Notes under the pieces: generated by a model
Databases searched by the model: none
Told to the model about the DNA's origin: nothing
What the model saw: only the letters and a program-made list of their open reading frames with translations
Origin: Leptogorgia sarmentosa
Lineage: Eukaryota
Direction of reading: 5' to 3'
DNA: 64,000 nt
Assembly (NCBI GenBank): GCA_964658305.1
Contig: OZ210885.1
Location: forward strand, 15,376,001 to 15,440,000
Shown: positions 2,702 through 55,821 of the stretch, piece by piece
How the letters are laid out: each line of letters starts with the position of its first letter
Position numbering within the stretch: the first letter of the stretch is position 1
Program-made: the position numbers and the translations under genes

Positions 2702-2965
2702 TATGAGGTGCCGTTACCGCCAAAATTCAGAGTGCTTATTTTTGAAAATGGAGGCATGATTTTTGAAAATGGAGGCATGATTTTTGAAAATGGAGGCATG
2801 ATTTTTGAAAATGCAGGCATGATTTTTGAAAATGCAGGCATGATTTTTGAAAACAATTAGTGTTTCGAAGATCATGTTTTGAAATTGCAACAATGATTTT
2901 TCAAAATGATAACTTTCATTAATTCCTACCACCGGGGATTTATTCCCGGGCCCCGAAACTGCGAA
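2702..2965 (+). repeat. Left TIR of IS3EU-A with about 5 copies of a 21-bp unit (TTTTTGAAAATGGAGGCATGA)
   Basis: Inverted copy at about 7691-7881 plus 9715-10114. The inner end carries a CCGGGGAT-N2-ATCCCCGG-type palindrome. Confidence 0.88.
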
Positions 2966-3036
2966 TGTGAATAAATTAGCTGAAATTACACAAAATAAAT
3001 TAGCCGTAATAAATTCGCGCCATCAAACTGTTAAAG

Positions 3037-5909
3037 ATGGCGGGCGAATATTCAAATGTTGCTCAGCTGTTTAGTGAGTTAGCGACCCGATTGCGCAGTT
3101 TTCCCGTACCAAATACTTCAAATTCACCGAACCAAACGAATAACAACAACTCGGTTGCTCAAACGCCAAATGTTCTGAATTCGTCAACAGATTCAACAAA
3201 TGAAATCGCTGTAGCGACTACAAACCGAGCTTCGACTTCGTCCAGGACACATAATGAACTGCAAACCCTTTTCCCTCATCATTTTAGCTCAACTTCCGTT
3301 CAGAGAAATAATTCTGCCTCAAGTTCAAGAAAGCGAAGAAAAAATAATCAACACAATTGCAAGAATAGTAAGAAATCTAATGTGAAATATCTTTCAAGAA
3401 AATTTGTCTGTTTATCAGATAAAGACCAGCATGAGGTACCAGAACGTGAAGAAATGCGAGAGTTATTAGTCCATGGCCTTGGCGAAGTTAAAGTGGCCAT
3501 ACCGGAAGATGCTAATGAAAAGGCCATCAGAGACAAATTGATTGAAACATTTCCTAAGCTTAAAGATAGTGGTGGGTTTGAACTTATGTATGTCGAGTGT
3601 AGAAGAAAAGATCTTATTGTCATTCCTCCAGGGCCTGATGGGCTCTCAATGAAGTATCTGGTATCATTTATTGGTCAAGGAAAAATATATGTCCGCCCCA
3701 TTCAACAAGATCTCTCCATCGAAGATGAAGTTGAAGCTGTTGGAGTCGAGAAAGAGCAGTGCATGAATTGCTGTCTCATGGTTGACATTCATATGTTACG
3801 GGAGCACCATCAAATCTGCACTGAAGATGAAATACCAACAGGTACTGTATTCAAAGTAAATTAAGGACAATTATCAAAGAGTGCCCATGCTTCCATCTGC
3901 CAAGTAAAAAGTGCACGAAATGTTAAATGCCTTGATTAGATGTGATAATTGTGGATAATGAGGGATTTTTAGCTCATTCCCTTTAGTCTTACATCTCTTG
4001 ATTACTTACCTGTGTGTCAACATCATCAACTTGATATGATTTGTAAGAACCATGTGATGATCTGCACGTACAACTTGGTTTAATACTGTAGCTACGAAAT
4101 CCTTGTAACTTCTAGCAGGATTTGGCACTATTTATACTATTACTAATTGACTAAGACAAATGAATTAGCCATTTCCTAATTGAGACCGCAAAGCATGCAT
4201 GGATTGTTTGGAAGGACAGTGCGACAGAGAGCACCAGTCACAAGACATGGATACTGCAAACAACTTTTCAGGCTTTTTCTTAGAGATAATGAAACAATCC
4301 ATAGAATAGATGTTTTTAATCCTGTATTTTAATGGCATAAAGAAATTTTAATATTAATCCATATTGTAATGGTTTAGAGAAATCAAGAGATGATTACCAT
4401 GATATTCCAGATGAATTCCTCGAACGACCTGCATTTCAGTTGGAAAAAGATGTGAAAACTAACGAAGTGGTTGAGAGTCAACATTATCTTTCTACACCCG
4501 TTACAACTGTGGTTGAAGTAACAGGTAACACTAGTGCCATGTAAATTTGAATACAGTATGTAATAAAAGTGAGAAATAGACTCACATACAGTATGTTTTT
4601 CATTCCATGAGCTATGTAGTATTTTGATATACCGATACTTGATATATTTCAGGAACATCTAATCAACGTTCCGATGGGGAATATAGAAACTACATAAGTA
4701 TTATTGATGATGATGAGATAAGTGATAATGATGATCCACAGCTTCAAGTGGCAATCGAAGAGAGCTTGACGAAACCAGATACCAAAGAGAGTCAAAGTGT
4801 ACAAGAAATACTGACTGCCTTTCAGTCAACCAACATTTCCAATTCTGAATCAAGTGATTTAAATGCAAACATAACTGTCAGCAGAAAATCAGTGTTTGCC
4901 TCGACCCAGAGAGCTATAGAAAGAAAAAGATTTACATTCTTCAAGCCGGTTGTTGTTGCATTTGCTGGAGAAGAAGCAGTCGATGATGGAGGTCCAACTC
5001 GAGAATTCTTCCGGTTGTTGATGCGTGAAATAAGTGAATTCTCTATATTTCATGGATCTTGGTTTTCGCATGATCTCGGTCTCCTTGCAAGCAATCGGTA
5101 CGAATTAGCAGGGAAGCTTGTTGCTTGGAGCATCTTGCATGGGGGAAGTGGCCCACGTTGTTTAACATCAGTTGGTTATGATCTGCAACAATCTGTTCAG
5201 GTCATTCTTGCAAATAGTGTTGATGTGGTTAATGACATGGAAATGAAAAACATGTTGAAAGAATTCATGAATTGTTCATCTGAGGATAGCTTCAGTTCAT
5301 TGGTCAACAAGCATGGTGAAAAAATTGCAGAATTTGGTTATCCAAAAATCTATCGTTGCAATTTATCAAATAAAAGTGAAATGATCGAGTCATTATTAAA
5401 ACAACATTTTGTTTATGGAGTCCATGCAGAGGTGTCACAATTCTTCAATGGATTAAATTCCATTGGTCATCTTGGTGATATGATTTTACACAACAAGCAG
5501 TTGTTTGATATGATCTTGGGTAACCAACATCCATCTTTAACTAAATCGTCATTCATGAAACTGTACGAGCTGAACCGCTCTGAAGAAGGGTCCAATCAAA
5601 GAAGCAAAGAGGATACTACCATCTATTGCTTTGAAATTTTCCTGCAAGATTTGGAAGAGGGTGTTGTTCCCGGATTATCACTGGAAGATCTTCTCGTATT
5701 TATCACTGGGGCTGATTGTCTGCCACCATTAGGATTTGGTAATAATATCACGGTTGATTTTTACGACTTTGAAGAAAACAGTCGTCGCCGTCCCTATGCG
5801 TCAACATGGACTGTATTTTTTCCTGCCAAGAGGATTTGAAAATCCTGAAGAATTCTCAAAATTCCTTAGTGAAGCACTCCTGGAGTGCCATGGATTTGGG
5901 AAGCTTTAA
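3037..5909 (+). pseudogene. Spliced HECT-type E3 ligase cargo of IS3EU-A (ubiquitin-like domain, C2HC zinc finger, UIM, HECT)
   Basis: Probable exons 3037-3841, about 4378-4523 and about 4653-5909. Motifs: CMNC..REHHQIC, UIM-like DDPQLQVAIEESL, FAGEEAVDDGGPTREFF, LLVFITGADCLPPLGF, RPYAST. A 2-bp deletion near 5808 removes the Cys codon; the shifted frame ends CHGFGKL*. Confidence 0.82.
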
Positions 5910-6298
5910 TTGCTACCATCCTCTTTGACAATTGGTAGCCTATTTTATTTGGTACATTGCCACTATAACATTATTTGACCTGTTATGAACATTTTGAAGC
6001 TTGCTGTTTTTGTGTTAGTTATGAATGATGCTTTCATTCCATTGAAAGTTCAGAATCATAGTTGAGGTTAGGGTTAGTGAACCCTTTGTTTACTATATAT
6101 ACTATATGGCATATTTCATTGCTTGTAACATAACGTAACGCTAACAATAATCTTAGATAAACCAATATGAAGTTTAACTTGCATCAAAGCACATTATTAT
6201 GGTTGTTTGGTTGTGACAGGACTGTCTGTTAGTTGCTGCTCATGAAATTTTTCACATTTATATGTAGTTGAAGAAATGTATTTTTTAATGTTGAATAT

Positions 6299-7680
6299 TC
6301 ATATTTCCACCTCTGTTATATTGTAATAAAACGTTTTCACAAATTGATAGTTTCTTACAGAATCCAAGGGTGAGGGATTAATTGGGCAATTCTGCTCGAA
6401 CTCAGCATTAAGTCGATCCAACTGTTGTTGAGATAATGGACTGTTGGTTTCAGCAACTTCAACACCCTCTTCATAATAAGCATCAGAACTTGCCGGACCT
6501 TCCCAATCCACACCATAATCATCACTAACCATGCTTTGATCCTGGAGAGCTATTTCTGCATTCTCAAAATTCCCCTGAACCCAGAGCTGAAGTGGGGTTT
6601 TATTTTGCTCTGAACTCAAAGGGTGTCTTATCCATGCATTAGCCCAAGATTTGAGTTTTGTGTTAATCACATGACAGAAGCAGTAGTGTAAGCACCATGT
6701 ATCTATTTCATTTATTGGATCAACTAAACCAATGTCTTCCATTGATATAAAAATACCATAAAACAAATCTAACACATCCCTGTAGACATCTCTCCATAGT
6801 CGTTCTATCCTCTGGTTGTGCACACTTCTGCCAACCAATGCAGAACCTCTGCCAGTGCCTCGTTTATTGATCATATACTCAACGACATCAACATTTTCTC
6901 CACCCCTATCACATCGATCACGGGGAGGGTAAGCCCCATTCTTGAACAGCACTTGAAGGACTGTGCTTGCCTTATTATTTGTATGGCAGTGTAAGAATAC
7001 AGGAATTCTAGTGTAACCATCGACATCACCATGAACGACAAACCGCCACCTTATGAGTTTGTGGTTTCCGTCGAAGTGCCACAAAGCCAATGGACAAGAG
7101 ACACAATACACCCTGCGATGGATTGACTGGCATTTTCTCGCAGCTACTCCCAGGGGGTCAACACGCCTAAGGGAATCTCTTATACGTGCTCGTGGAAGTC
7201 TGATGTTACGGGAAGCTAAGTGACCGACAAGGTTTTTTGAACCAAGGTTAGGGTAAAACAATTTGATTTCACGAACTACAGAATCACTAAACGGTCGCGC
7301 TGACAGGCCGAATTGAGAAATACGACGTTCGATTGTTCTCTTTCCAACTTGCAGCATCTTGGCAATTAGGCCAACATTAAACCCAACATCAAGAAGAGCT
7401 TCAAGTTGCTCTTTGGATATATCATAAGAAGGACGTCCAGCTGCTCCGGTGAATACCTTAGGGGTTCGTGAGCATGTTTTGACGTTTTTTTCTAGCATTC
7501 TTTTGGAATTCTTACATTAGAATCCAAAGCGTGTAATGCTTCGAATGTAAGTTCTACTTCCTCAAGAATTTCAATCACTTCTAAACTATTAGTTTGCAAA
7601 GAAGACTGGATATATTCAAGCTTCATTACAGTTAATCTCTTTAATTCATCCGCCATCACAGTCTCTGAAATTAGCGCCAT
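6299..7680 (-). pseudogene. IS3EU integrase-like DDE transposase of element A
   Basis: Helix-turn-helix region (IAKMLQVGKRTIERR), then [17 protein letters not shown] and HNQRIERLW. The N-terminal segment 7492-7680 is separated by a frameshift or stop. Small deletions relative to the B transposase. Confidence 0.88.
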
Positions 7681-7881
7681 TTTGAATTAGTCTCAGTCCT
7701 CGGGACCCGGGGATAAATCCCCGGTGGTAGGAATTCCTCTTAATGAAAGTTATCATTTTGAAAAATCATCGTTGCAATTTCAAATCCTGAACTTTGAAAC
7801 ACTAATTGTTTTCAAAAATCATGCCTGCATTTACAAAAATCATGCCTGCATTTTCAAAAATCATGCCTCCATTTTCAAAAA

Positions 7882-9714
7882 TAGGTACACAAAGTGTACA
7901 TGTATCTGCGCCTATGTAGCTTGATCAGTGGCGTAGCGAAGCCATTCCGATAGGGGGGGGGTGTAAAGCAAAATATTCTACCGACCTAAATAGGTTTGGG
8001 CAGGACAGGGCCGGATTATTTGGTGTGGAGGGCGGGTCTCACGAGACGCCACCATGGTTAGCATCGAGCGAGAAAATTTTGTGAATTTAGAGCTCTAGAT
8101 CGCCTGAAACGGCCATTTCAGAGTGTTAACCAAAGCCTTAACACTCAGAAGAGTATAGAGGTCTTAGATGTTGTACAACCACAGCTTGCTAACTAATCGC
8201 ACACGGACATAGACAACAGACATATACTTTTACATATTTTACTTTTCTGCTCTCTCTGTGATTTAATGACATAAATTGAAAATTTACCGACCCTTTGGCT
8301 TCAAAACCGACCGCAATTCATTTACCCGACCATTTTCAAAAAAATTGGGGGGGTGTCACACCCCTGTGCTGTCGCTACGCCCCTGAGCTTGATGATCAAG
8401 TCTTATTTGTTTTCAGCTTTTCGATACACGCATCTTATCTGTCCCTAATACGCGATCTTGCATGTATAAAATGGTTTACTGCTAGGGAATAGGCGAATAG
8501 CGCAAATACTAATTCCTTTCAAGACGTGAGGTTGAGCAGAGACGTAATCAATACTTGATATAAGCTTTCATAACTATCTCGCATTCCGGAATTCCTGCGA
8601 TCATATATCAAATTGCATAAGGAATTGAAACTTGACGACATATGATATCGCATTTTATGTTATTGCGTCTTTAAAATGGGCACAGCGCTTTGCGATTGTT
8701 TGTGAAAAATGTGGCTCTCTAAAAACCAAATTTACCCTTTTCAATACCGTATCATAATAATATATTTATATACAATATATCCCGTCCATTCATGCGCATT
8801 TGCGTAGACGCTAAAGTGTATGTATGATCGGTATGCGCAGTACGCGTAGGTTCAAAACAGAATACTTGAAACTATATATGATTTCGTTTGTTTTGTCTCG
8901 CGCTTAATAAACGCACAAACCCGTGTTATTACAAGCTACGAAATCTATTTTCCTGGGATTGAGTGTTTCAACCATTCCGTATGGCGAAGCGTCAAAATAT
9001 AGTAGATATTCCGTGATCACAATGACATCGCGGGCAGCCCAAACATGTACAGTGTGTCAGTTCCGACACGCTAAAGTATCGTAGGGAAAATATACGCGCA
9101 ATTGTGTCAAGTCATTAAACTCTTTCATAACCTTAAATATTTGCTGTGTTCAATTGTATAAATTGCGTCATGATATTTTTGCTTTGATGATCTAAATTGC
9201 ATAGCGAACGCGAACCTCTTTAATTAATATCTTTAAAAGCAATGCCAATGTCGGCAATTTGCGTATAATATTTGTATAATATAAGATTCCGTCTGATATT
9301 TTTGCGTATAAATTGCCTTAGTATAAATAGTGTTCTAAGCGGCGCAAACGCTCATAAATTAACCTCTATTTCAGTCAAGGCACTCGTCGCTGCGAACATT
9401 ATATTTCTTTTTATCTGGATATTCATGCGAAACAAAATCCACGATCAAACAGACAAACACATCACCACTCTTTAGCTCGCGCCTATATCAGCCGCCATTT
9501 TGTAATATTTAGCCCGCAAGAACTCCACGTTGGTTCCCTTAAATTTGCGGGTGGGCTCAGTGACAATTACGTCATCTCAATGTTACGTTGTCGCCTATTG
9601 GCTAAATTTAACTAACGAATTCGCTGATTGGCTGCAAGTTAACAGCTAACAACTAACAGCTAACAGCTAACAACACGATAGCAATATATCTGCGTCACTA
9701 CGTCACGCAGATAC
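7882..9714 (-). mobile_element. Non-autonomous Helentron/Helitron2-like insert in the right TIR of IS3EU-A
   Basis: Interrupts the 21-bp array at an A5 run. Asymmetric inverted repeats TGTATCTGCG (7901-7910) and CGCAGATACA (9706-9715). Hairpin GTACAC-AAA-GTGTAC at one end and TATCTGCGT-N9-ACGCAGATA at the other. No credible ORF. Confidence 0.65.
7926..8385. mobile_element. hAT-type MITE (460 bp)
   Basis: TIR CAGTGGCGTAGCGA / TCGCTACGCCCCTG. Perfect 8-bp TSD AGCTTGAT (7918-7925, 8386-8393). Confidence 0.9.
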
Positions 9715-10079
9715 AAAAATCATGCCTCCATTTTCGAAAATCATGCCTGCATTTTCAAAAATCATGCCTGCATTTTCAAAAATCATGCCTCCATTTTCAA
9801 AAATCATGCCTCCATTTTCAAAAATCATGCCTGCATTTTCAAAAATCATGCCTCCATTTTCAAAAAATCATGCCTCCATTTTCAAAAATCATGCATCCAT
9901 TTTCAAAAATCATGCCTCCATTTTCAAAAATCATGCCTCCATTTTCAAAAATCATGCCTCCATTTTCAAAAATCATGCCTCCATTTTCAAAAATCATGCC
10001 TCCATTTTCAAAAATCATGCATCCATTTTCAAAAATCATGCCCCTATTTTCAAAAATCATGCCTCCATTTTCAAAAATA
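9715..10079 (+). repeat. 21-bp tandem array (about 17 units) in the right TIR of IS3EU-A
   Basis: AAAAATCATGCCTCCATTTTC repeated with few variants. Confidence 0.95.
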
Positions 10080-10120
10080 AGCACTCTGAATTTTGGCGGT
10101 AACGGCACCTCATAAATTAC

Positions 10121-11272: not shown

Positions 11273-11789
11273 GCCTGATCTATTCTAGTCTAGTGTGGTA
11301 TTGTTTTATGCGACGCAACATATTCATCAATATTCTAATAACGTATTTATATTCAAATGAGCTAATAATAAGACAGAGACTGTCTACTGAACATTTTGAT
11401 ACCTAAATCACGATTCGCGTTTAAATAATGTGAATATTTAAAGTTAAGTACATACCCAGACGCATTTCACCGAATGATACATTGACGACGTCAACATCGC
11501 TATCACTACTGTTCATAAAATCCTCCATTTTTTGCATTTCCTCTTCACTTTCTTCGGCCATTTTACCCACACGTGTTTAGGAAGGACTGTCCATGGACCA
11601 GCAAGTGATATCACGTTTCGATGGATTGTATTTCAGAAGATATTTTAGGATTGCCGCGTTATCGACATTGCGTGCCGCGTAATCGACCATTATTCGGCAG
11701 GCGTTTTGGCTAAGCTTATCATATTTCGCGCGCGCCCCTCCTACAAGGGACTGGAACTAAACACCAAACGTAAACGCCTGCGGAGGAGG

Positions 11790-14700
11790 TAGGTCAATTC
11801 CTGTTGTGATGGAAACTCTTTAGACGCTTTGAACTCTTGGACTGCAGCAAAACCATAAGCGTTGCTTCCATCTCTAACACTCTCTTTTATATGGTTGAGG
11901 TTTTGCTCTTGAAATTTCCTCTTTTTAAAGACCTCTTTAGTTAGTTTGGGTCTTTTCATCACATTGTTGACTATTTTGTGGAACCCGCCTTTACCGTGAG
12001 CTTTAAATACGGCTTCACAAAAGTGTCCCTTCGTATGCAAATCTCCCGGAATCTCTGTCATCCAGCTGAACGCAGTGCTGTTTCTGTTCTTCACACTGCA
12101 ATTAACTTTACATGTTCCTACGTCACCTACGACTGCAGTTGGGAAACCTTGATAGTTTGATCTTTTGTATTCGAAAGATTGATCGGTGGCAGTTTCGACA
12201 TTGCTATCGGTGTCCATACACTGGGTTGAATTGTCGGATATTTGGTTGTTGACGAAACTATAATCAATAGTTTGAAGAGCATCTACGGTTGGACTTTCCT
12301 TTGTTTGGGAATGTGAGTAAAATAGCTGAACAATGTTTGTTAATTCCATAGCAGTTGCAATTTCCAATGGACACTTGGGAAAGACCCAAATAGACCTCCT
12401 TCATATTCTGCAAAATTTTCCAACAAAAGTTTGCACATGGTAAGATCATTGTTTAGAACAGCTATAGTCATAGCGGTAGCTCCGCACCCTTCTTTAACAT
12501 TAGGGTTTATTCCAATCGATAGTAATACTTTCGCTAAAACGTAGTTTTTCAGTTCCACAGAAAAGCTAAAAATTGTTTTTCCATAGTGATCTGTTATCCT
12601 ATTGATTTTTTCGACATCGTTCGAAAACTGCTGTATCAAGATGCCCAATGGGTCTTCTTCATTAGAGTTGGTGATATGTGCAGTCTGTCTTGAAATTCGC
12701 TCGTACAAATCTTTGAAGGGTTCGCTTCCTTGTTGAACAGTTTCGTCAGCAACGCGTTGTATGTTATTTTCACTATCTTCACTTGAATTAGTATCTGATC
12801 CGCTGCTATTTTCATCTGGTATATCTAGTTGCTTTTCACGAGACCGCATTTGCTTCCCAGTTTCCAGCATTTCAGTTCTGTGTATTTCAACTGACCTCAC
12901 GAATTCGTATTGCATCCGGGCAAATTTGATGTCAAATTCCTTGCCAAATTGTTCAAGAATCTCTGCTGTTCCAGTGAGGGTTGAATTGTCTTCTAAGGAC
13001 AGCTTAAGGTTGACAACTTCGGTCTTAAGCTTCGGTGTTGGAGCAGCGTTCTTTGAAGGAGCATTAATCTTGAACTTTTTCTCTGTTTCACTATTGTGTT
13101 TAGCAAAGTCGATTCTTGACAGCCACGAATTGAATTCTGACTCACGCATTTCTTCAAAAGGCTTTGGCGGTGTAGGGATACCATTTAAACTCTGATTGAG
13201 TAGCTCCAAATAATACCCATCACACCATTCATTCCATACCTTCTTATGCTCAGGCATTGAATCTTAAAATAAATGAAGTGACATGCGTATAAAGGTTCTA
13301 CACTGTAATACGAGAAACAAATTGCTGCAATTTCTCTTGCAACATCTTGTCCCAATCTAAGGAATTTTAATTTAAAATGTACAAGCAATAAATTATAACA
13401 CTTTTGTAAACATCACTAGTTTATGGTATTTTTTTATAAACAAACAAAGCTCCAAGCCGGTTGTTGCTCGAGGAATTGCAGCAAACATAACATACCATAC
13501 AAAATTGCTGAATGACCTATACATACCTAAGAACAAATCTTCAACCTTTAAACTAGATATATTCGATTGTGGCATTGTCGCGGTCTCCTTTTCTGTCATT
13601 AGATCTGTTATCTCTGATACATCTGGAATGATCGCCCCTCTGACTGTGAAATTCCACATATTAGGACCCGGTGATTTTGATAGCCTGATATGACGTTTCC
13701 TTCCACGGTAAAGATTAATATTGTCCATCAACAATATAACCGGAGTCGAAATAGGGCATCTATTTTCAATGATATCTGGCAACTTTGCTTTGCGTTGATC
13801 AAGAAAATTGTTCCTAAAAAAAGTTGTAAGAGATAATTCTTGGGTTTCACATGACATCATAAATTTGATGGAGGGTCAAATCGAAATCAAGGCACATACA
13901 GAGTGAATTAATTGTTAATTATATGTACTGGCCTTGCAGTCTAAACACCAACACTTTTTAGGTTGACTGCCCCTCCCCCCCCTCCCAACAGATTAACTAC
14001 AAAATGCATACAATAAAACCCAAGAATAAAATTGTATGCAATCTTTTACATGTTATACTGGACTTTCTGCCATATTACCAATGTACAATTTCGTTACAAT
14101 ATACAATAGAAATTCATCAAAAGCATACATACACTGTGTCCCAATGAGGAGTCAATCCAACTGAATTTAGTAGATTCATGAACTGTTTGCCAGCGCCAAA
14201 TGTCACACACACTAAACTGAGGAGCAGTCTAACATCATTTCTGCATTTCTCATTCTGTACGCCCAGTAACAAAGACAATGCATTTCCACCACAGGTCATT
14301 TTATACTCTGGTGATTTGTACACTCGTTTTCTCTTGTCAGTTATCAAAAGTGTTTGAAGAACACTGTGCAGTAGCGGGCACTTTTCTTGAAAAACGTTTA
14401 ATAAGTCATTGAAGATGTTAGCCTAAAATACACTTTGTACATCAATATTGCCTTTCAGGTTTAGGTTGCACATTTCTTCCATCTCTTTGATTTCTTTATT
14501 AATTTGCTTTTCTTGGGAATCTGTTATTTTAACACCTCCTGGAACATTAAGCAGTTTTACTTTGACCTCGTACGTTTTTATCAATGCTGAGTTTAATTTG
14601 AAAAATTGTTGCAATTTGAAATTATGGTCTTTCGAAAGCTGGTTGGCCAATTCAATATCTTCATCATCTAATGCAGAAATAATCAGTCGTGTCTGTTGAG

Positions 14701-19200: not shown

Positions 19201-19560
19201 TCATCTACTTCTTGTCCGGCTGCAAGTAATCAAGTTATTAACAGTTTTGATATCATCTGGGTGTTTATTGAAAGCTGTTTCAACTATTTCTGTATGGCTA
19301 TATGAATTAGAATACTCACATTCTTCAACCAGCCTCGTGCTCTCCGTGGCAGGCAACAAGAATCCCGCGCTCAAATTAAGGCAGTCTACGCAACGCCAGT
19401 CAATTTCTTCACCGCATCTTACAGCGGTTCGATACGCGATTAGCGAGATCCCACTGTTGCAGGTCCGATGTTGCCATCTTTCGCAGCAATCGCATAACAG
19501 CCCCTGTTGCCGAGCTCTTACAGGCTCCTTGCAGCGAATGCAGTTATCTTCGGCAGACAT
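16214..19560 (-). CDS. Spliced Mutator (MULE) transposase with N-terminal PHD finger and FLYWCH-like zinc finger
   Basis: PHD finger CIRC..CDCCERWQHRTC..WRCVDC (19320-19560). FLYWCH-like WRCSVR..CKATV..HTH (17553-18027). MULE core YVDGTFK, LDFE, GCSFH (16718-17466) and RTNNDVEGWH (16214-16543). GT-AG junctions; exon limits approximate. Confidence 0.85.
18096..18858 (+). repeat. Minisatellite of about 19-bp monomers arranged as 38-bp and 57-58-bp higher-order units, in a MULE intron
   Basis: CACGTAACTTATCATGCACTAACATAACTTCATATACT (38 bp), often followed by CATATAAG(G)TCCATATACT. Confidence 0.93.
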
Positions 19561-22486: not shown

Positions 22487-22637
22487 CTAAAGAACCAAAA
22501 AGAAATGGAATTCATATGTATGCAGAATTATAATGGGGATTTCAGATTGTGTAGAAATATCAGGGATTCTAAATTATGCACAAATGTCAGTCTTTTTACA
22601 ATGTTATGTAACTATACGTTATGAAAATGGGAGTGAT

Positions 22638-25600: not shown

Positions 25601-25707
25601 AAAACAAAATGGTTGTAACGTGACTTGTCCGATGTCGTTAAGTATCTATACGCTAACATGCATTTGAGATAACTGCCTGAATCAAGTTGGGAGATTTTCT
25701 GAAGAAA
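22638..25707 (-). pseudogene. Helitron-like HUH Rep + PIF1/RecD (SF1B) helicase, 5'-truncated
   Basis: Rep motifs VFITIS, YRIEFQGRGT-AHVHLLVW (one-base frameshift near 24938) and RYVTNYISK. Helicase motifs VTGKAGTGKT, IIIDEISM, GDRYQLPP, YAITICKSQGQTL and YVALSRV. Confidence 0.85.
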
Positions 25708-35724: not shown

Positions 35725-36053
35725 TCTGTACTGTTAATATTTAATTGTTACATCTTATAATGTTCATTATAATATTAATGATCATTATAATATTAATTAA
35801 TTAATTATAATATTAATGATCATTGTAATATTATAATGATCATTATAATGATCTGTACTGTTAATATTTAATTCAAACCAAACTAAAAGCCAAACTAAAA
35901 TTCAAACAGTATGAAGTCTTTTGCTTCAGGGCAATGTAACTAAAAGTAAATAAAATGTCTTTTCCTTAACAAAACTAACTTGATAAAACACCTTAGTAAC
36001 ACTTTCTTTCTGCAAATTCTTTGGTCTTCTACCTCAACAAGTGTTTCTACTTT

Positions 36054-38318: not shown

Positions 38319-39145
38319 TTCTTGTGTTCTTATTGGAGAAAACAGTTGTATCAAACTAGTGTTCAAAAATCAATGAAAAACCTGCAGAACAATACAATCC
38401 ACGTGCTTCCCAAATTGTCCGCCATCTTGGTTTGATATGGACCCCCGGGTTCTGAGTACCTTCTAGACTAGTTCCCAGACCTCTGCATAAAAAAGTCACC
38501 ATTTTAAAAAAATGAAATGCTTCATTTTCAAACCTGATAAAATGGTGCATTTTCAACAGTTAAGTGATGCATTTAAAAAAAATTAGGTGTTGCATTTTTA
38601 ACAAATTTGTCCCACCATTTTCAAATTTCTTCTCTCCATTTTCAAAAGCATAGGTATCATTTTTTACACGAAGATTACAATTTTAGAGAATGAAATGCAT
38701 AATTTCAAAAATCTTTTCGCCATTTTGAACCATAAAGCCACCATTTTAAAAAAAGAGTTCAGAATTTTAATAAAATGAAACATCGTTTTATGAATCTAAA
38801 CCACCATATTCTAACTTTACCTCACCATTTCCTAAATTAATTGGCCTGAATTTTGGCGGTGATGGCACCTCATACTCTAAGGGCCTGTTTATATGAGAGA
38901 CGGGACGGGCGATGCATGGGATCCTGGCACGTATATGTTTCTGTAGTTTTCATCGCATACTGTTTATATGGAGGCAGGACGTTTATTGTCCCGTCTCGCC
39001 TAGCTGGGATCCCGGTTTCAGCAACCTGGATCCTGGCTTGAGCGGGACAAATTTTTGCCATGTAAACGCTTCATCCTACCCTGCCCGGGACAATATTGTG
39101 CTGACACTGTGCTTTTACAACAAGTCACATGTAAGCAAGTTCAAG

Positions 39146-46442: not shown

Positions 46443-47714
46443 TTAATTGTTCTCTTCATATATGCGTAACAGTTCTCTATACAGATTAAGAGCATCAATC
46501 CAGTTGGCAGGCCTTTCTGAGTTGATGTTTTCAAGAATATACTCAAAGTATTCTTCATACAAATTTGTATCTTCTTCAAATTGTAACAAATTTTCAGCAA
46601 CAATTTCAATCTCTTGTACTGAGACTGGATGGAGCCTGTCTTCCCCACCTTTACTTTCAGGAAGCAAGTACAGTCCATCAGGTCTTCCAGCAATAGTGTC
46701 ATGAGAAGAAGCCCAAATTGTGTGGGTATTCCAGTGATCCTTAACAAAATCTAAATCTTGTTGGATTATGCCTGCGAAACAAAACCACAAAGCTTCCATT
46801 TGCACTTCATTACCAGGGGAAAATTCTTCAGTTTCTACAAGATCCTTGAAGAAATTTATCCACCAAGTGGACCGATTCCGGCGAAAGTGAGACCACCAGC
46901 CCTCGATTCGCTGATTGGCTGTAGATTTACCATATACATGTGCCTTCACATCATTCCTAAAGTAGCACTGCATTACTGCAATGGTGCCATTCTCTGTACC
47001 ATTATCAGTCCTCATTTTTTCTGGACAACCATCGTGCTTCTTGACACAGTCGAGATAAAACGATGCAGGGATTTCTGGAAAATTGTTTGACCTACAAACC
47101 TTCAACCACATGATCTTTCTACTCCAGCCATCGATTGCCCCGTGGATTGGGAAGTCGTAGGGTTTCAATTTGTCGTAGCCATCAGCATGCCACGAATAGT
47201 TAGGTCCAGGGGATACAAATCTCCTTCTTTTTAATCGTTTGGCTTTTCGCTCCTCACAACCTTCAGGGTCAAGTTCCCTTACAATTCCTTCAATGACATT
47301 CCTTGGAACATGTATCCCTTCTAGTTGAAGTGTGTGCCAAATAGAACAATAGCCACCCATACAACCAGGGCCATTAAGTAGTTCATCTATGCGTTGTCTA
47401 ACTACGTCTTCGTCATAAACAACATTCCGGCACTTGAGACCATACCCGTTTAGACGACTTTTTAGGGTACGAATTGACATGGTGACACCATGTTCTTTTT
47501 CTAGCATCTCGACTATCGCTGAATATTCAAAGCCCTTTTTGAAATACTTAGTTATAACAACCCTTTCATCATAGTCTTGGTGTTCATTATTTTCTCCTGC
47601 CTCAGTTCCACATTCCGGACAGTACTGATAGCTCAACTTCAACAAAAACCCACAATTATAACATTCGCTGCTGAATCTCGGCAAACCAACTTCAACCATA
47701 TTGTTTGTTTTCAC
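46443..47714 (-). CDS. Intact IS3EU DDE transposase of element C with N-terminal zinc ribbon and Clr5-like helix-turn-helix
   Basis: 423-aa ORF with CYNCG..YCPECG, MSIRTLKSRL, WHADGYDKL, RTDNGTEN and NQRIEGWW. Confidence 0.9.
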   Translation of the reverse strand: MKTNNMVEVGLPRFSSECYNCGFLLKLSYQYCPECGTEAGENNEHQDYDERVVITKYFKKGFEYSAIVEMLEKEHGVTMSIRTLKSRLNGYGLKCRNVVYDEDVVRQRIDELLNGPGCMGGYCSIWHTLQLEGIHVPRNVIEGIVRELDPEGCEERKAKRLKRRRFVSPGPNYSWHADGYDKLKPYDFPIHGAIDGWSRKIMWLKVCRSNNFPEIPASFYLDCVKKHDGCPEKMRTDNGTENGTIAVMQCYFRNDVKAHVYGKSTANQRIEGWWSHFRRNRSTWWINFFKDLVETEEFSPGNEVQMEALWFCFAGIIQQDLDFVKDHWNTHTIWASSHDTIAGRPDGLYLLPESKGGEDRLHPVSVQEIEIVAENLLQFEEDTNLYEEYFEYILENINSERPANWIDALNLYRELLRIYEENN

Positions 47715-50700
47715 ATGTTTAATGCGTTTCAGGACCGGGGGATTGGGTACCAGAATAATTCGTTAATTACATAGCCAATAACCTCTCGTTAAAACCTAAA
47801 ACCTCTCGCCCGCATTTTGGACAGTAGTTGAAGCCTTTTTCAAGGGCATTTCCACAACAATGACAAAATTTACTCGACCATGAACTTTTGCCATCCATGG
47901 CTTGACCATACAAGACGGCAACATGGCATGGTAGAAAACCTGTATAACTGGTAAACATCTCCGGTAGTCGGGTTGTGGAATAATATTTGTGTTCGCTTTT
48001 TAATAAATGTGTTCGCTTAATAAATGTGTTCGCTTAATAAACGTGTTCGTTTAATAAACGTGTTCGTTTAATAAACGTGTTCTTTTAGTAAACGTGTTCG
48101 CTTAATAAACGTGTTCTTTTAGTAAACGTGTTCGCTTAATAAACGTGTTCGTTTAAAAAACGTGTTCGTTTAATAAATGTGTTCGTTTAATAAACGTGTT
48201 CGCTTAATTGTCGGCTTAATAAATGTGTTCCATTTATATTTTTGTGTTTCATCTAAATATTTGTGTTGCCCTTATCGGCCACCGTAGAATCCGGCGTCAA
48301 AATTCCGAAAAAAAAAAGATCTTTACCGACTTTTCGGGGGGGGGGGGGAGTGCTTTGGACCAATTTTGACGATCCCCCCCCCCCCGATTTTTCCAACTTC
48401 CCCCTGGTCAAATTGTTTCAAACTTGCACAGTTTGTAGATATCTATGCAGTCTACCCGATAGTCATTACAGTTTTTAAATATCTTTAAATGCTATGAAGA
48501 TATACTACTTTTTCCAAAAATCAATTTTCTCAATCAGGAGGCCTGGGAATGAGTCAAATTTTTTCTCTCTTTTTTTTATCTTGTAGCACGTCTCGCGTTC
48601 TACCAGACAGTGGTTTTTCGACTTTTTGGAAAAGCTACGCTAGCTTTTTATATCGACTTTTGTGCTTAATTTATGTCGATTTTTGGCCATTTTTCCGAAC
48701 GACATAACTTTTTCTCCTTAAAGTGGAAGCACACCAAACTTGGTGGAGACGTAGCACGTTTTGATCGTGACAAAATCTGGAGATGAATTTTTTTTTTTGT
48801 TTGAGGTCTTGGTTCATGAGATATCGCCAATTTTGTGTTTTTCTAAAATGGCCGCTGGCGGACTAAGGATAGGTTATTTTTAAAATTGTTTTGGTCAGCC
48901 GATACAGGCAATTATATGCTATAACACGTGTCAAAATTATGGAATATTATTAAAACGTGACGGATTTATAGTCGATTAAATACATTTATTTTTGTCTTTG
49001 TATATCTTTGCCGGATTAACATGAAAGGAAATTTCTCCACGACAGTCATGTAGCCTGCCGCGCAGGGATTGGGCACCAAAAATTTGGTGTCCAAATATTG
49101 AAAATTGATGACGTCATAGGTGTCACAATTTTTTACTATTTACAAATTTTATTGGAACCGACCTGTCAAGGTCAATTTTTTCGGAACAATTTTGATGAAC
49201 CAATTTGCAGTAAAACAAGGAATTATGGGTACCATTTAGAATTTCGAAAAATTGCCCAAAAGGGGGGAAATTTTTAGCAAAAACTAACCCTAGTTTAGTT
49301 AACTCGAGCTTTTTTCCTTTATGGTTTAGAGCCATCTTAACAATAATTCCAGATAGCATACGACCAGATAATTACAAGCCGTGAGATTTCAACTATTTTT
49401 TTACAAAAATGGGCGTGGTCACAGCATTAAAGCGTTATCATATGTTTCGCCAGCACGTTATAAGATACAGACAAAAGACTAACGTCATAGAGAACACCTA
49501 ACACCACACTAGTTCCCATAGCAACATGTAAACTTTTGGTTGCCATAGCAACAATATACATGAATGTAAATCCAATATGGCCGCCAACATTCTAGCACCG
49601 TTTCGTTGCAAAGTTATAAGCAAAATTGTGAGATAATTGTAGAAATTCATAAATCCAATATGGCCGCCAACATTTTTCATTAATTTGTTAATACCTCATG
49701 AATAGAACATGCTTATACAACGAACGATATATCAAATTAAAGCGCGTAAAACGACGATTGTAATGATATTTGAACCACTGTTTAGTAATGTTTCGTTGCA
49801 AAGTTATAAGCAAAATTGTAATATAATACATAAGACAAGAGCATTTATGGCGCATGCGCATTCATGGCCATGTTTGTCAAGACGTTTCACCATGATGCAC
49901 GCATTGTTTCTTGAGTATATATATTGTAAACCTACTCATCGTCATCATGTAAACATGGCCTACATGTTTGATGTCTCATATGATTGGGCGTGGTCGGGAT
50001 TCCATTAAACATTATGGTGTTTTGCCACGCTCCGTTTGAAGTAAAAATTTTTCCCCCCTCACATTCTGTTGTTCAGCATCTGGGCATCTATAAAATGTTC
50101 ACTACGTATCTGTAGCGTCCAAAACCACAGAGATATCGCATGGTAAAGTAGGTCAAATTACCATTTACGACCATGTTTAACGTTGCGTAGCCACCTTAAT
50201 ATAACTTTATAAGTTACAGCAACCACCAAGAATCCTTGCCTAATACATGTACTTTCACGTGGCAAAGCATGAAGTGTATTCACGTAAAGGTAAAAGAGAT
50301 ATTGCATGAACAGTTTTATAGAAATTCATATTAGATTTCAAAATCCAATATGGCCGCCAACATTTCCATTAATTTATTAATAACTTGTGAAAACAATGCT
50401 TTTATACAATGAACGATATATAAAACTGAAGCTCGTAATACGGGGCGTGTAATGATATTTGAACCACTGTCTAGCACTGTTTCGTTGCAAAGTTATAAGC
50501 AAAATTGTAAGATAGTTACAGAAATTCATAAATCCAATATGGCCGCCAACATTTTTCATTAATTTGTTAATAACTCATGAATGGAACATGGTTATACAAC
50601 GAACGATATATCAAATTAAAGCGCATAACACGACTATGGTGGCCCAGCGCTATCATCGAATTTTTCGGCAGTTTATATTATTTTACATTTCAATCTTATG

Positions 50701-51059
50701 TTTTAAATATCAATTTAATTTCAAACGCTTTTATATTTTGGTTTTAAAATGCTAATTTAGTTGTATTTCACCCTGTAGAATACATAAATATTGCATCCAT
50801 AATAAATAAATACGGTATAGTTCATTTGAATTGTCTCTATTAAGCGTTTTCTTTTTTTTTCTTTGACATGTGCGACAGACTTTTCAATTTATTTTCAATT
50901 TATAAATAAAATTTTTAAATGCATCTAAGTCCGTGGCCCAGCGCTATCACTATCATATGTATCCCATAATGCTACATGACACAATAATAATTGGCGGGAA
51001 ACCTCACCCATGTGCTGGTAAACAAAATACAGCGTACAGTGAACTGTCAGTCTGTCAGC

Positions 51060-52364
51060 ATGGCTATGAAACGCAGAAAACAGGATTGCAAAAAGAAAGA
51101 AGACTGGGCTGAATTTGAGCGAAGAGTGGGGCTCAAAAGAATCGAAGGGCAGGAGAAAAAGGCCCGAACTGGTAGTTTAAAAGTGCCGAGTGATATACTT
51201 GTTCAACAAATGTCATCAGTAGCTTCAGGTCACTTGAAGAAATACGAACCATTGGACACAAGAGACTTCGTCCCTTTCGAAGATTACGACGAATTAAGCA
51301 TTGATAATATAAAAGACGCTTGTGAACGCTTCTACAACGCGCCACAAAACACTTGTGACATCCTAGCATCTGACCGGGGCCCATCTTGTAATAAGTTTGA
51401 TCAAATAAAGGGTAAAAAAGTTTTCTTCATACGATTTCTACCGCCAGAAAATGAGGGCGAACGTACCGATAATATGCCGATGAAGGAAAATAGGCCAAAG
51501 CCAGCAGCTACAAAATCCTCTCCGGTAAAGTTCGTTTCGGTTTGTAGTCCACGTGCTCCAGCTACAGTCTTCCCAAAGTCTATATCCATTGGAGATTTGC
51601 TTAAAGCTGGAAAATTGATAAAGCCATCAAAAGTTCATACATTCAACTTAGAGCACTTTGACGTTCACAAATGTATGTGGATTAACGCCTCGTCTATAAA
51701 GCTTCACATTGATGATGAAAAATTCGCAAGTGGCGCTTTCCGAGATGCTTACAAAGCGAAGTGTCTCGATCCACCGGACCTGCGTGGTGAATGGGTGTTG
51801 AAACGGTACCAGAATACTTCGATAAACACGATCACAAATACATTGGAAATGTCTGTTGAAGATCACACCAGAAAGCAGGTACAAATGCACGCCGTTGCAA
51901 GAAACATCGCACAGCAGTTTGCTGCTAAAGTACCTCCAGAATTTAAGGATACTTTTACGTATGCCAAAGTTTTTTACTCCTCGTTAGACGGTCAGCCAGT
52001 GACTGTCGAAGAATACGTGCCCGGTGATTTTGTTAAGTACATAAATAATGATGGTCAATGCTTGGAAGCACCTGACGAAGAATACGAGGTCATGTTCAAG
52101 AAAGCAGAGTGTCTTGTACATTTCAGCCACGACTATTCAAATAAGAAAATGATGCTCTTGGATATACAAGGTTCCATGTTTAATTTGTACGATCCTGAAA
52201 TTGCTACCGCAGAGTTGAGTGATGTCTTGGACGATTCAGGAGAGTTCTATTTCTGTGCTGGCAACTTGTCACATCACAGTATCGATCATTTTTTTAGCGA
52301 ACATAATTGCAATCAGTTTTGCGTAATGTTGAATCTGGCATTAGAAATAGATTTGACGTCGTGA
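51060..52364 (+). CDS. Intronless alpha-kinase (eEF2K/TRPM-kinase family) cargo of IS3EU-D
   Basis: FASGAFRDAY, WVLKRY, QVQMH..A..F, VEEYVPGDFVKYINNDG, LVHFS, LLDIQG, LYDPEI, GNL and the zinc-binding HNCNQFC. First ATG at 51060; no stops. Confidence 0.92.
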   Translation: MAMKRRKQDCKKKEDWAEFERRVGLKRIEGQEKKARTGSLKVPSDILVQQMSSVASGHLKKYEPLDTRDFVPFEDYDELSIDNIKDACERFYNAPQNTCDILASDRGPSCNKFDQIKGKKVFFIRFLPPENEGERTDNMPMKENRPKPAATKSSPVKFVSVCSPRAPATVFPKSISIGDLLKAGKLIKPSKVHTFNLEHFDVHKCMWINASSIKLHIDDEKFASGAFRDAYKAKCLDPPDLRGEWVLKRYQNTSINTITNTLEMSVEDHTRKQVQMHAVARNIAQQFAAKVPPEFKDTFTYAKVFYSSLDGQPVTVEEYVPGDFVKYINNDGQCLEAPDEEYEVMFKKAECLVHFSHDYSNKKMMLLDIQGSMFNLYDPEIATAELSDVLDDSGEFYFCAGNLSHHSIDHFFSEHNCNQFCVMLNLALEIDLTS

Positions 52365-53052
52365 AAGTGGTACATTTCATCACTACAATTTTAGTTGAGT
52401 TCCATAAATTGCAAGTAGCCACTAGCCAAGCTTAGTGGCTAGTATCACGTATGTAAAATTTTATTTACAGCATATTTCGGAGAAAACCGACAATGCCGAT
52501 GTGTTACAAAGAGCGTAGGTGCGAATTAATGACGCTGATTATATATTATATAGTTGTTGACATTGTTTTCGAGTGATCGTGGAAATAGTACGAAAAGGCA
52601 ACATTCTCAAAACAGCTAAATATACTTGAAAACAATGTATCTGATTTTATATCGGTTTTAATATACTTCGGACAGATGGTGTAGACGACACCTTGGACTT
52701 GGTAGAAAGATTGCTTGATAGTATAGGTAATATAACATTTAAGTAACCCAGTTTGATATTTTATTAATAATTAACTTTATACTCGACATATGTTTGTCAA
52801 TAATACAACATGCATATACAGCTACCGTAATTCAATTACGTAAAGGTTATTAATTGCTCGGCGTTGAATATTAAAGCCGGGTTCAAGTTGAAACTACAAA
52901 AACCTGGAACATAAGTTTGGGAGTCTTTTTCAAACTTGAAGTACTTGGACTTTGAATTTTAAGCATTGGCCAGCCCATGACTAACTGCATATACAACACA
53001 TAGTACAACTTTACACCTGTATTAGATGTAAATTGAAATATTAAACTTTTGG

Positions 53053-54279
53053 TTAATAAGAATTGCTGTTATTATAGACAGTTTGTTTCAGAAACAGATA
53101 AGCGTCTTTTGCACTACTTGAATCAACCTTAGATGGTTCAGGTAAACACTGTTCACATGCATGTTTTATTCTTTCGTCATGCATGTAAGTTTCTGGATTC
53201 TCTTCAAGTAAGCCTGAAGCCTCTGCCACTTCTTCTAACGCATCTTGTGTGACAGGAATACCACAATGATTCCCTCCGTAATTCTCAGGGAAGGAAAACA
53301 TGTGATTTGGCACTCCTGTGGGAAGCGACAGGTCGTCCTGGTGACGGATTCTGTGGGAATTCCAGTTGCTTACAAAAATATCACATTCACGTTGAATAAT
53401 GGGAATGTAAACATATGCCAATAACTGCCTGTTCAACATGTCGTGTGGGTCGTACTGTCTATCTCGTAGCAGTTGTGCTAACTGTATTTTAAAATATTTT
53501 TCCAATCTCTCGTGCAGATCACGCCACCATCGTTCAATTTTGTTGCTTGTTGAAGGGCCATATATAATAGCTTGTATTGGGTTTTCGATAACGTCATACT
53601 TGTTTACAAGGTAGACGTGTAGAGTTGCCATTTTCCCGGTTTCCGTGCCCTTGTCAATTCTAAGATATAGTGGCATCATTTTTTCCTGATACAAGTACTC
53701 GAGGTACTTTTTCCCAACTATGCGCGGATCAGAGTTTGAGTAACACACAAAGTGAAACAAAATCTTTCTGGAAAAGGTATCCAAACAACCGTAAATACAT
53801 ATGGGGAAAGTTGAGTTTTGATACCCACAGAGTTTATCGTGTCCATCCAGCGATACAACCCATAAAGGACCATTGGAAATAAACGCCACTTTCGTTTTTT
53901 TTTCTTCCTTTTGTAAGCTCCTCGCTTCCAACCCGTCAGGATCTAATTCGGCAAGAACATGGTGCACCAAATGCCTGGGTACTTTAGCATTATGTACTGT
54001 TCTAAGCTTTTGGTTCAACGCTCTGTAACCCAGAAGTTTGCCTGGACCATTTAGTTCCTGACTAACAACAGCAGAAACAGCCTCAACCGATGTAGCATAA
54101 TCAATGTATCTTATTTCAAAATGTCGAAGTCTCCTGTCAAGTGTAGCAATACTCCATGCGTATTCAGGAAAATCCCGTTTAACAAAATCTAATATTTCTG
54201 ACCTCTTTAGATTCTCCCTAACATACTGGTCAAGATCTTTCTTTAATTTTCCATCATCTTTCCAGCTATTATTCGCCAT
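53053..54279 (-). CDS. Intact IS3EU DDE transposase of element D
   Basis: Clr5-like WSIATLDRRL, GPGKLLGYR, VSLDGHDKL, RIDKGTET, NKIERWW and WNSHRIR. Confidence 0.92.
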   Translation of the reverse strand: MANNSWKDDGKLKKDLDQYVRENLKRSEILDFVKRDFPEYAWSIATLDRRLRHFEIRYIDYATSVEAVSAVVSQELNGPGKLLGYRALNQKLRTVHNAKVPRHLVHHVLAELDPDGLEARSLQKEEKKTKVAFISNGPLWVVSLDGHDKLCGYQNSTFPICIYGCLDTFSRKILFHFVCYSNSDPRIVGKKYLEYLYQEKMMPLYLRIDKGTETGKMATLHVYLVNKYDVIENPIQAIIYGPSTSNKIERWWRDLHERLEKYFKIQLAQLLRDRQYDPHDMLNRQLLAYVYIPIIQRECDIFVSNWNSHRIRHQDDLSLPTGVPNHMFSFPENYGGNHCGIPVTQDALEEVAEASGLLEENPETYMHDERIKHACEQCLPEPSKVDSSSAKDAYLFLKQTVYNNSNSY

Positions 54280-55821
54280 TGTCACAGAAGAGATACTGTA
54301 CTATAAATACGCTTTTACTGTTTTGTTTACCAGCACATGGGTGAGGTTTCCCGACAATTGAAAAGCCTGTCGCACATGTCAAAGAAAAAAAAAGAAAACG
54401 CTTAATAGAGACAATTCAAATGAACTATACCGTATTTATTTATTATGGATGCAATATTTATGTATTCTACAGGGTGAAATACAACTAAATTAGCATTTTA
54501 AAACCAAAATATAAAAGCGTTTGAAATTAAATTGATATTTAAAACATAAGATTGAAATGTAAAATAATATAAACTGCCGAAAAATTCGATGATAGCGCTG
54601 GGCCACCATACACGACGATTGTAATGATATTTGAACCACTGTCTAGTAATGTTTCGTTGCAAAGTTATAAGCAAAAATGTAATATAATACATAGGAAAAG
54701 AGCATTTATGGCGCATGCGCATTCATGGCCATGTTTGTCAAGACGTTTCACCATGATGCACGCATTGTTTCTTGACTATATATATTGTAAACATACTCAC
54801 CGTCATCATATAAACATGACCTACATGTTTGATGTCTCATATGTTGGGCGTGGTCTCGGTTCACCAATGTAAACATCATGGTGTGTGACCACGCCCCGTT
54901 TGGAGTACATAATTTCTGTTTTCGTACATTCTGTTAATCTGTATCTGGGCATCGAGAAACAGTTCATTGGGTGTCTGTAGCTCCGAAAACCACAGAGATA
55001 TTACATGGTAAAATAGGTCAAATTACCATTTATGACCATGTTCAACATCACATAGCCACCTTAATATAATTTTATAAGTTGCCGCAACAACCCAGAATCC
55101 GTCTCTAGTACATGTACTTTAATGTGTCAAAGAATGAATAGCATACATAGAAACCTACAGGAGATATGGGATGAAAACTTGGGAAAAAAATACCAGCATG
55201 CACCGTTAAAATTTTACCAACTCTGCTGCATTAATTTCTCAAACTTTTCATCCAATATCTCTTTCAGATTTCCATCTATGCTTTTCATTCTTTGACACAT
55301 TAAAGTACGTGTACTAAAGATGGATGAAATTATATTAAGGTGGCTATGTGACGTTGAATATGGTCATAAATTTATTTTGCACCATGTTGTGGCGAATTTT
55401 TGACCATGATAGACTTATTTTCTCTTGAGCATATATATTGTAGGAATGTTCCACAGTATCACATGAACAAGTCCAATATGTTGGGTGTCTCACATAATTG
55501 GGCGTGGTCGGGAGTCAACCATGTAAACATTATGGTGTGTGGCCACGTAATTAAATATAATTAAATCCACAATAAGCTGCCTTTTAAATTCTTTCACATG
55601 GAGAACAGATACAGGTAGTTGCTTACATGGATGATTTATTGATAGTAATTTGCATTATGGTGAATATTTGAATTCCAATACTTGAATTCAACACCCAAAT
55701 TTGCACGAGCAGAAGAAAACATCTCATTTTGTATCACAACACTTGCAAGGCTTAATTGTATGTGAGTTGAAAATCATATATGAACAAGGCCATTTCAACT
55801 ACTGATTAACTGTGATTGTAG

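Follow-up and report, generated by a model that had tools for sequence, protein, structure and literature searches.

IS3EU and GingerRoot DNA transposons are defined by TA..TA termini, 6-bp target site duplications (TSDs), and a particular DDE transposase (PMC10045372; PMC6839031), and IS3EU elements are stated to encode two proteins (PMC10853768, Fig. 8 legend). The second protein goes unnamed in the searched text of Kojima and Bao 2023 (PMC10045372) and Cerbin et al. 2019 (PMC6839031), where the words "HECT" and "kinase" are absent. The searched text of Kojima 2025 (PMC12730594) reports that, in TET+ IS3EU families of fungi, an alpha-kinase gene is present in the orientation opposite to that of the transposase. 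Here, a 64,000-nucleotide stretch of the gorgonian Leptogorgia sarmentosa (assembly GCA_964658305.1, contig OZ210885.1, positions 15,376,001 to 15,440,000 of the forward strand), referred to below as the window, was analyzed. The window is transposon-dense (39% GC) and contains four IS3EU elements, A to D, each of which encodes two proteins, a transposase and a second protein that is a HECT-domain protein in A, B, and C and an alpha-kinase in D. The conservation of these second genes supports the view that they are a working part of the element kept by purifying selection. The limits of the elements and two features that bear on them are as follows:

2702-10114: element A, IS3EU of the HECT type, a decayed copy, TSD AATTAC
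33872-38874: element B, IS3EU of the HECT type, a decayed copy, TSD CTCTAA
42320-48286: element C, IS3EU of the DGYDKL subgroup and HECT type, TSD GAATCC
50635-54610: element D, IS3EU of the DGHDKL subgroup and kinase type, both genes intact, TSD CACGAC
7877-9720, no strand: high-copy nonautonomous insert that splits the right terminal repeat of A and contains a miniature inverted-repeat transposable element (MITE) at 7926-8385
49696-49815, plus strand: paralogous empty site for element D, with the 6-mer present once and the joined flanks matching at 95.8% over 120 bp

The 6-bp TSDs are perfect and different in all four elements, and the outermost 20 bases at the left end of each element are the reverse complement of those at its right end. 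The elements start with TATGAG (A and B), TACGG (C), or TATGG (D), and all have TA..TA termini. The terminal inverted repeats (TIRs) are approximately 255 bp in A, where the right copy is interrupted by a 1.84-kb nested insert, 449/462 bp in B, approximately 590/486 bp with internal tandem repeats in C, and 255 bp at 99.6% identity in D. As a chance control, the window was scanned for inverted ends of 11 bp that start with TA and are accompanied by a 6-bp duplication, and it was compared with 20 block-shuffled windows; the window gave six matches, namely, the four elements and two self-complementary (palindromic) 6-mers inside TIRs, and all 20 shuffled windows together gave one exact match. 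In addition, the empty site, in which no element is present and the single 6-mer differs by one mismatch, is direct evidence that D was inserted with target duplication; D sits in a locally repeated unit. The MITE inside the insert in the right TIR of A has an 8-bp TSD (AGCTTGAT), a length typical of hAT.

The four transposase genes are as follows:

6299-7685, minus strand: transposase of A (motifs DGNHKL, DRGGEN, and NQRIERLW), frameshifted in its N-terminal part and, compared with B, missing two short stretches
34308-35724, plus strand: transposase of B, with a frameshift near 35140
46443-47702, minus strand: transposase of C, an open frame with an N-terminal zinc ribbon
53053-54279, minus strand: transposase of D, intact

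All four match PF24764 (rva_4) above the Pfam cut-off, and none gave a Pfam match to the integrase zinc finger (HHCC), C carrying a C4 zinc ribbon instead. The transposases of A and B are approximately 70% identical, and those of A, C, and D are mutually just 23 to 28% identical. In a comparison by eye with the Repbase IS3EU cores available from the supplement of PMC10045372, A and B fit the NHKL.RW subgroup (IS3EU-1_CVi and IS3EU-4_DR), C fits the DGYDKLKP subgroup (IS3EU-1_HM and IS3EU-5_DR), and D has DGHDKL, GTET, and KIE in common with the rust family IS3EU-1_PGra. All four elements are thus confirmed as IS3EU/GingerRoot DNA transposons, sharing the TA..TA ends, the 6-bp TSD, and the DDE core, although their TIRs of 255 to 590 bp are longer than the 100 to 150 bp given for GingerRoot in the searched text of PMC6839031. 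An original prediction, made from the letters of the window, had claimed four elements with these limits, TA ends, long TIRs, and distinct perfect TSDs, which the ends, the chance control, and the empty site of D bear out; its assignment to IS3EU with DG..KL-type transposases likewise agrees with the ends, TSDs, PF24764 matches, and motifs.

In A, B, C, and D, the second gene is convergent with the transposase gene, and both lie inside the TIRs and TSDs. The second genes are as follows:

3037-5909, plus strand: second gene of A, HECT, with exons at approximately 3037-3841, 4378-4524, and 4653-5909
36057-38320, minus strand: second gene of B, ubiquitin-like domain and HECT, interrupted by a stop at 36830 and by frameshifts, with its STC motif kept
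42813-45804, plus strand: second gene of C, with exons at 42813-44078, 44465-44694, 44829-44959, 45075-45346, and 45554-45804
51060-52364, plus strand: second gene of D, alpha-kinase of 434 amino acids, with a conserved N-terminal domain of approximately 85 amino acids followed by the kinase with its catalytic and zinc residues

The second gene of A encodes, in order, an S/T-rich region, a ubiquitin-like domain, a Cys/His finger, a UIM-like helix, and HECT, the finger and UIM labels having been given by eye; its product is approximately 70% identical to that of B. In both, PF00632 (HECT) was found above the Pfam cut-off as a C-terminal bilobal domain. The second gene of C encodes a zinc ribbon (within the TIR), a conserved 100-amino-acid domain, a UBZ-like finger, and HECT; the zinc ribbon scored over the cut-off, and the RA (E 0.045) and UBZ matches are weak, with E values of approximately 0.05. 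The HECT domain of C is spread over five exons and was missed piecewise by Pfam, and it was recovered by tblastn, by a hidden Markov model (HMM), and by a spliced model ending in TSTC...FGFGLL. A profile of the cargo HECT domains matches 67 solved HECT sequences, with a best E value of 6e-24. The D protein matches PF02816 with an E value of 1e-31 and has the features of the alpha-kinase fold (Lys, Asp-x-Gln, Asp-Pro, and the zinc site), and its structural matches include MHCK A (Z 24.8; root mean square deviation [rmsd], 1.8; 208 aligned) and the TRPM7 kinase (Z 25.6). The predicted distribution of the two enzymes, HECT in A, B, and C and alpha-kinase in D, therefore held when it was examined by Pfam, tblastn, the HMM, and the spliced model. 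The closest named cargo homologs are anthozoan, from Dendronephthya (77%) for the A ligase and from Paramuricea and Stylophora for the kinase.

All three HECT copies of the window are broken, a point absent from the original prediction, and the transposases of A and B are frameshifted too; both genes of D and the transposase of C are open. In the HECT gene of A, the reading frame shifts at the codon for the catalytic Cys, near 5820; in that of C, the frame is shifted in the N-terminal part and a stop codon occurs too early, at 43988. An intact relative 98% identical to the A ligase (P0259) keeps the catalytic STC motif. Contigs from two runs (X2 and X3), of one sample that is possibly the source of the window, are identical to the window over 34950-38169, including the breaks of B, so an assembly error behind these breaks is unlikely, as judged from this single sample. 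The catalytic Cys is present in B, C, P0259, and the complete element L133 described below, and the HECT cargo is, on these residues, a putative ubiquitin ligase.

Selection on the second genes was assessed by the ratio of nonsynonymous to synonymous differences per site (pN/pS), which is quoted because synonymous divergence (dS) was saturated in most pairs. Between A and B, whose synonymous sites are near saturation (pS 0.70 to 0.80), pN/pS was 0.258 for HECT, 0.272 for the ubiquitin-like domain, and 0.271 for the transposase. Among pairs of kinases, the range was 0.27 to 0.56, somewhat higher than the 0.18 to 0.44 of their transposases. The HECT rows for L068/L074 and L037/L039 were dropped, having nonmatching exons of 10 to 26 codons. 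The catalytic Cys is found in 69 of the 71 HECT homologs that cover the site, and the Phe at position -4, a functional HECT residue, is found in 68 of 70. Among the kinase homologs, the Lys is kept in 119/120, the catalytic Asp in 109/109, and the zinc ligands in at least 101/102.

The pairing of transposase and enzyme was then followed in metagenome contigs, which were scanned with the transposase alignment. Of the 329 loci confirmed, the 80 best were taken, and these fall into 50 families at a 90% identity threshold. The scan pattern excluded DGYDKL, so the C-type subgroup is thinly sampled (two C-like families, one with a weak HECT piece). Among these loci, the D clade has a kinase in 15 of 28 families and HECT in none, and the A clade has HECT in 5 of 20 families and a kinase in none. 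Where at least 1 kb of downstream sequence is available, the kinase is present in 12/13 families of the D clade and HECT in 3/5 of the A clade. Two complete elements, L133 of the type with a ubiquitin-like domain and HECT (394-bp TIR; perfect TSD GTGTAG) and L064 of the kinase type (426-bp TIR; perfect TSD GATCTC), confirm that TIRs and TSDs enclose both genes in other genomes, as the original prediction requires. In three assemblies rich in host-animal DNA (G001, G002, and G005; G003 and G004 were excluded for their short contigs), 9 of 16 regions picked by their transposase held HECT pieces and 0/16 held a kinase; a separate alpha-kinase search of G001 to G005 matched nothing, controls included, and thus gives no evidence of absence. 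Conversely, an IS3EU transposase is found within 10 kb of 13 of the 21 HECT places in these three assemblies, or of 10/18 without the three places that led to the assemblies, against a background of roughly 1 to 4% of the assembly, which is an underestimate, prokaryotic DNA also being present.

Several loci from these searches have features of their own. G001, G002, and G005 (loci L081, L082, and L089) are titled archaeal or bacterial metagenome-assembled genomes, and their long, intron-bearing, transposon-rich animal contigs point to host contamination. In L126, L127, and L035, an A-clade transposase and a gene with the ubiquitin-like domain and HECT lie head to head, with weak TIR-like ends around both in L127, which may be a layout variant. 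L128 (6184-15129) is an IS3EU element with 410-bp TIRs, a 7-bp duplication (GTAAGAT) rather than one of 6 bp, and a transposase with HECT fragments. L138 (5663-14531) is a palindromic IS3EU-like element with a 4.4-kb inverted repeat at 99.95% identity, TACGG ends, and TSD CACGCA; it holds two inverted transposase copies, and no cargo was detected. Within one kinase-type family, L003 and L005 are circularly permuted relative to L002, with the 5' ends of the kinase and transposase genes joined and most of the TIR missing, which is either an assembly artifact or a circular form; spliced introns were rejected as the difference between L002/L005 and L025/L044. Transposase and kinase homologs also occur on equally long contigs in six pairs (P0044/P0173, P0087/P0159, P0042/P0149, P0043/P0180, P0070/P0172, and P0061/P0174), which suggests that the members of each pair lie together (two of the contigs are 5.4 and 2.8 kb, and one pair is from Ciona intestinalis). 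No relative turned up in viral contigs scanned with D, A, A1, and A3 as queries.

Both gene starts lie inside the inner ends of the two TIR copies, or within approximately 100 bp of them, in all four elements, and one promoter duplicated with the TIR would therefore drive both genes. A candidate for such a shared promoter is found in D:

50989-51027, with its partner at 54321-54359, no strand: 39-bp inner inverted repeat of D, 33 to 42 bp upstream of both start codons

The N-terminal parts of the enzymes are of three types. The model of the A/B ligase domain has a pLDDT of 84, and all 50 of the matches listed for the A domain are ubiquitin-like folds (Z 5.9 to 7.8; best match, Z 7.8, rmsd 2.7, 80 aligned); with Z below 8, this indicates the beta-grasp fold only, and an N-terminal ubiquitin-like (beta-grasp) domain is accordingly predicted for the A/B ligase. 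The same domain type recurs in L035, L082, L089, L127, L129, and L133. The N-terminal approximately 85 amino acids of the D kinase have a beta-grasp-like order of strand-strand-helix-strand-strand, and the ubiquitin-like domains of USP7 gave a weak Foldseek match to the D protein (E 4e-3); the structural matches listed for the D protein are otherwise taken up by its kinase. Profile comparison detected no mutual homology among the A-type, C-type, and kinase-type domains (probabilities below 1%), and a single shared adaptor family across the three is not claimed.

Whether the enzyme slot is exchangeable can be judged from the transposase phylogeny. The cargo type changes once on a tree of 58 families (29 labeled) and once on a careful tree of 35 rows (32 labeled), in which the kinase clade has a support of 100/100. 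HECT is thus found in two transposase lineages and the alpha-kinase in a third, with at least one switch, in one direction or the other on this unrooted tree, deep in the superfamily. The distances of kinases and transposases covary (rho 0.73 over 14 families; 1 of 2,000 permutations as high), and those of HECT domains and transposases are uncorrelated (rho -0.12, n = 9; rho -0.01, n = 10). A HECT tree constrained to the transposase clades is rejected by the approximately unbiased (AU) test (P = 0.005), a result that hinges on L084 and L089, in which HECT and transposase are paired by proximity alone and no TIR was found. The original prediction had proposed an exchangeable effector slot, and the idea that IS3EU families often swap kinase, ligase, or other effector genes is in line with the required ligase/kinase switch, with the conflict between the HECT tree and the transposase clades, and with the movement of TET/JBP genes between transposon superfamilies (PMC12730594, searched text). 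Such free exchange is nevertheless unlikely, given the single change on both trees, the absence of kinases from the A clade and of HECT from the D clade among the census families, and the dependence of the AU test on two loci. What stands of the proposal is the occurrence of at least one switch; the enzyme type itself is, by this distribution, fixed by the transposon lineage and not freely swapped. The uncorrelated HECT and transposase distances hint that like may have been exchanged for like among the HECT lineages.

As for the role of the second gene, we consider it about an even chance that it is a long-kept, lineage-fixed helper enzyme, probably made together with the transposase, that modifies a host protein restricting the element. 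The ligase would tag the host target for degradation, the kinase would inactivate it by phosphorylation, and the ubiquitin-like N-terminal domain is the likely targeting part. The presence of two unrelated enzymes in one slot, together with a HECT phylogeny that does not track the transposase at depth, would be easier to reconcile with a host target than with the transposase, and the precedent of anti-silencing TET/JBP cargo in IS3EU, as presented in the searched text of PMC12730594, favors the same choice. A target in the element's own transposase, modified so as to dismantle the complex after strand transfer or to limit its amount, is possible although on the whole doubtful. The codivergence of kinase and transposase, the covariation of close HECT families (A/B, 70/71%; L074/L133, 68/45%; L082/L127, 62/45%), the equal constraint on cargo and transposase, and the start of both genes beside the same TIR sequence speak for it; it is at odds with the uncorrelated HECT distances, with the occurrence of one HECT lineage under different N-terminal domains (in P0295/P0301, the C-type domain sits on an A/B-like HECT), and with families that seem cargo-free. 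Far less probable is a passive capture, in which the second genes would be one-off copies of host genes riding without benefit (Pack-type cargo), even though the three HECT copies of the window are broken and clubmoss GingerRoot elements carry host gene fragments (PMC6839031, searched text). Neutral evolution or one-off capture had been named in the original prediction as fatal to its proposal, and the cargo instead shows a pN/pS of 0.26, next to 0.27 for the transposase, despite near saturation of synonymous sites, together with nearly invariant catalytic residues and the same enzyme-transposase pairing in dozens of families; on the pN/pS values, the kept residues, and the complete elements elsewhere, passive capture is rejected.

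Several observations weigh against a helper enzyme that acts on a host target. The parallel divergence of kinase and transposase would be just as expected if the transposase were the target. The three HECT copies of the window are broken, yet the TIRs of A and B are near-perfect, which argues that single copies need no enzyme of their own. No transposase lies within 10 kb of 8 of the 21 HECT places, no cargo is visible in 7 of the 16 transposase-found regions of G001, G002, and G005, and two of the five A-clade families with enough downstream DNA (L061 and the L072 group) show none. In addition, the layout varies, the genes of L126, L127, and L035 being head to head and those of L129 and L135 in tandem or unclear. 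At 4 kb and with both genes intact, element D lends itself to a direct test of what its enzyme does. Enzyme cargo of this kind is not standard in cut-and-paste elements, and a DNA transposon in which a ligase or kinase is kept by selection would influence host proteins in the manner of viral accessory proteins.

The rest of the window holds further transposons. Two related sets of open reading frames (ORFs), at 182-2713 (minus strand) and 11744-14420 (minus strand), have weak DUF6589 matches and ankyrin repeats and possibly belong to a transposon of the KDZ/Zisupton-like kind that carries ankyrin cargo; the 5' end of the former set is the insertion site of element A. Other elements lie at 16214-19650, 21215-26217, 26431-28257, 28467-31478, and 56135-62670, and among them are a Mutator-like element whose ORFs are of the FLYWCH and PHD-like kinds, a BEL/Pao-type element that interrupts a Helitron, the remains of a hAT element in which 727 bp are duplicated in tandem, and a long terminal repeat (LTR) element with identical LTRs of 244 bp.

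The cargo homologs are named in databases as "G2E3-like" ("G2/M phase-specific E3 ligase-like"), "TRPM6" or "TRPM6-like," "myosin heavy chain kinase D-like," and "eEF2 kinase," and the suspicion that "G2E3-like" and "TRPM-like" gene models may be transposon cargo proved justified in that models with the names "G2E3-like" and "TRPM6-like" are cargo homologs. The names do not describe the proteins: PHD or RING fingers, a feature of true G2E3, gave no match in the cargo ORFs or in the precomputed domains of 84 homologs, and the D protein, with 434 amino acids made up of a small N-terminal domain and the kinase, lacks the TRP channel domain of TRPM6/7. A transposon origin offers an explanation for the multicopy "G2E3-like" and "TRPM6-like" models of cnidarians, tunicates, echinoderms, molluscs, and fish, and gene-family counts can be distorted by them. 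Surveys of HECT proteins place G2E3, GL-Metazoa, and GL-Bikonta in a fast-evolving class (PMC3673628; PMC2837046), and the string "transpos-" is absent from the searched text of both (Grau-Bove et al. 2013; Marin 2010). The cargo resembles G2E3 and GL-Metazoa in its very divergent HECT domain and in the naming of its homologs, and it differs in that PHD/RING fingers are missing, a ubiquitin-like domain being present in their place, and in that the catalytic Cys is retained.

A related case is the fish protein NHRE3, an active "G2E3-like" ligase for ISG15 composed of NHR and HECT (PMC13623101). Fish NHR+HECT proteins of the same architecture (P0317 to P0324) nest in the tree of transposon-borne HECT domains, a tree built without a host outgroup or true G2E3, and their link to NHRE3 is a match by architecture only. 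NHRE3 differs from the cargo in being a conserved host gene with an NHR domain, and the searched text of PMC13623101 makes no mention of transposons. P0317, P0318, P0320 to P0322, and P0324 are conserved, and they are candidates for a domesticated transposon gene; domestication of an IS3EU HECT as the fish NHR+HECT gene is, from these sequences, a lead and not a result. A transposon origin is thereby suggested for at least one characterized fish immune gene.

The fungal TET+ IS3EU families are the closest described system, with TAYGG..CCRTA ends, a 6-bp TSD, and the kinase opposite the transposase (PMC12730594). They differ from element D in having a TET/JBP gene between the two genes, whereas D is an animal element without a TET gene; the searched text of PMC12730594 gives the kinase one passage without analysis and names no HECT. 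No statement linking HECT ligases to IS3EU was found in the searched text of PMC10045372, PMC12730594, PMC6839031, PMC10853768, PMC11934779, PMC5753468, PMC4255032, PMC8195603, PMC2837046, PMC3673628, and PMC13623101, Repbase Reports, Kojima's 2019 review, and Zhang et al. 2016 being outside this coverage. The original prediction had allowed that both cargoes might already be catalogued; this is so for the kinase, which is in print for fungal IS3EU, and was not seen for HECT in the literature searched, Repbase entries not being covered. What may be undescribed is thus limited to the HECT cargo and to the kinase clade of animals. It may be, although we put this forward tentatively, that IS3EU was "armed" with protein-modifying enzymes before the animal-fungal split, that the fast-evolving "G2E3-like" HECT class of animals in its entirety and many stand-alone "TRPM6-like" kinases are transposon genes, and that hosts have domesticated them repeatedly (the fish immune regulator NHRE3 and possibly the HECT of vertebrate G2E3). 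Transposon anti-silencing genes are represented by VANC of Vandal elements, by SET-carrying Harbinger and MuDR elements, and by TET/JBP (PMC12730594, introduction). The elements described here resemble these systems in encoding a second protein, which in those systems is thought to counter host control; they differ in the kind of enzyme, since the known systems act on DNA or histone marks, whereas the IS3EU elements of the window carry a ubiquitin ligase-like protein or a kinase.

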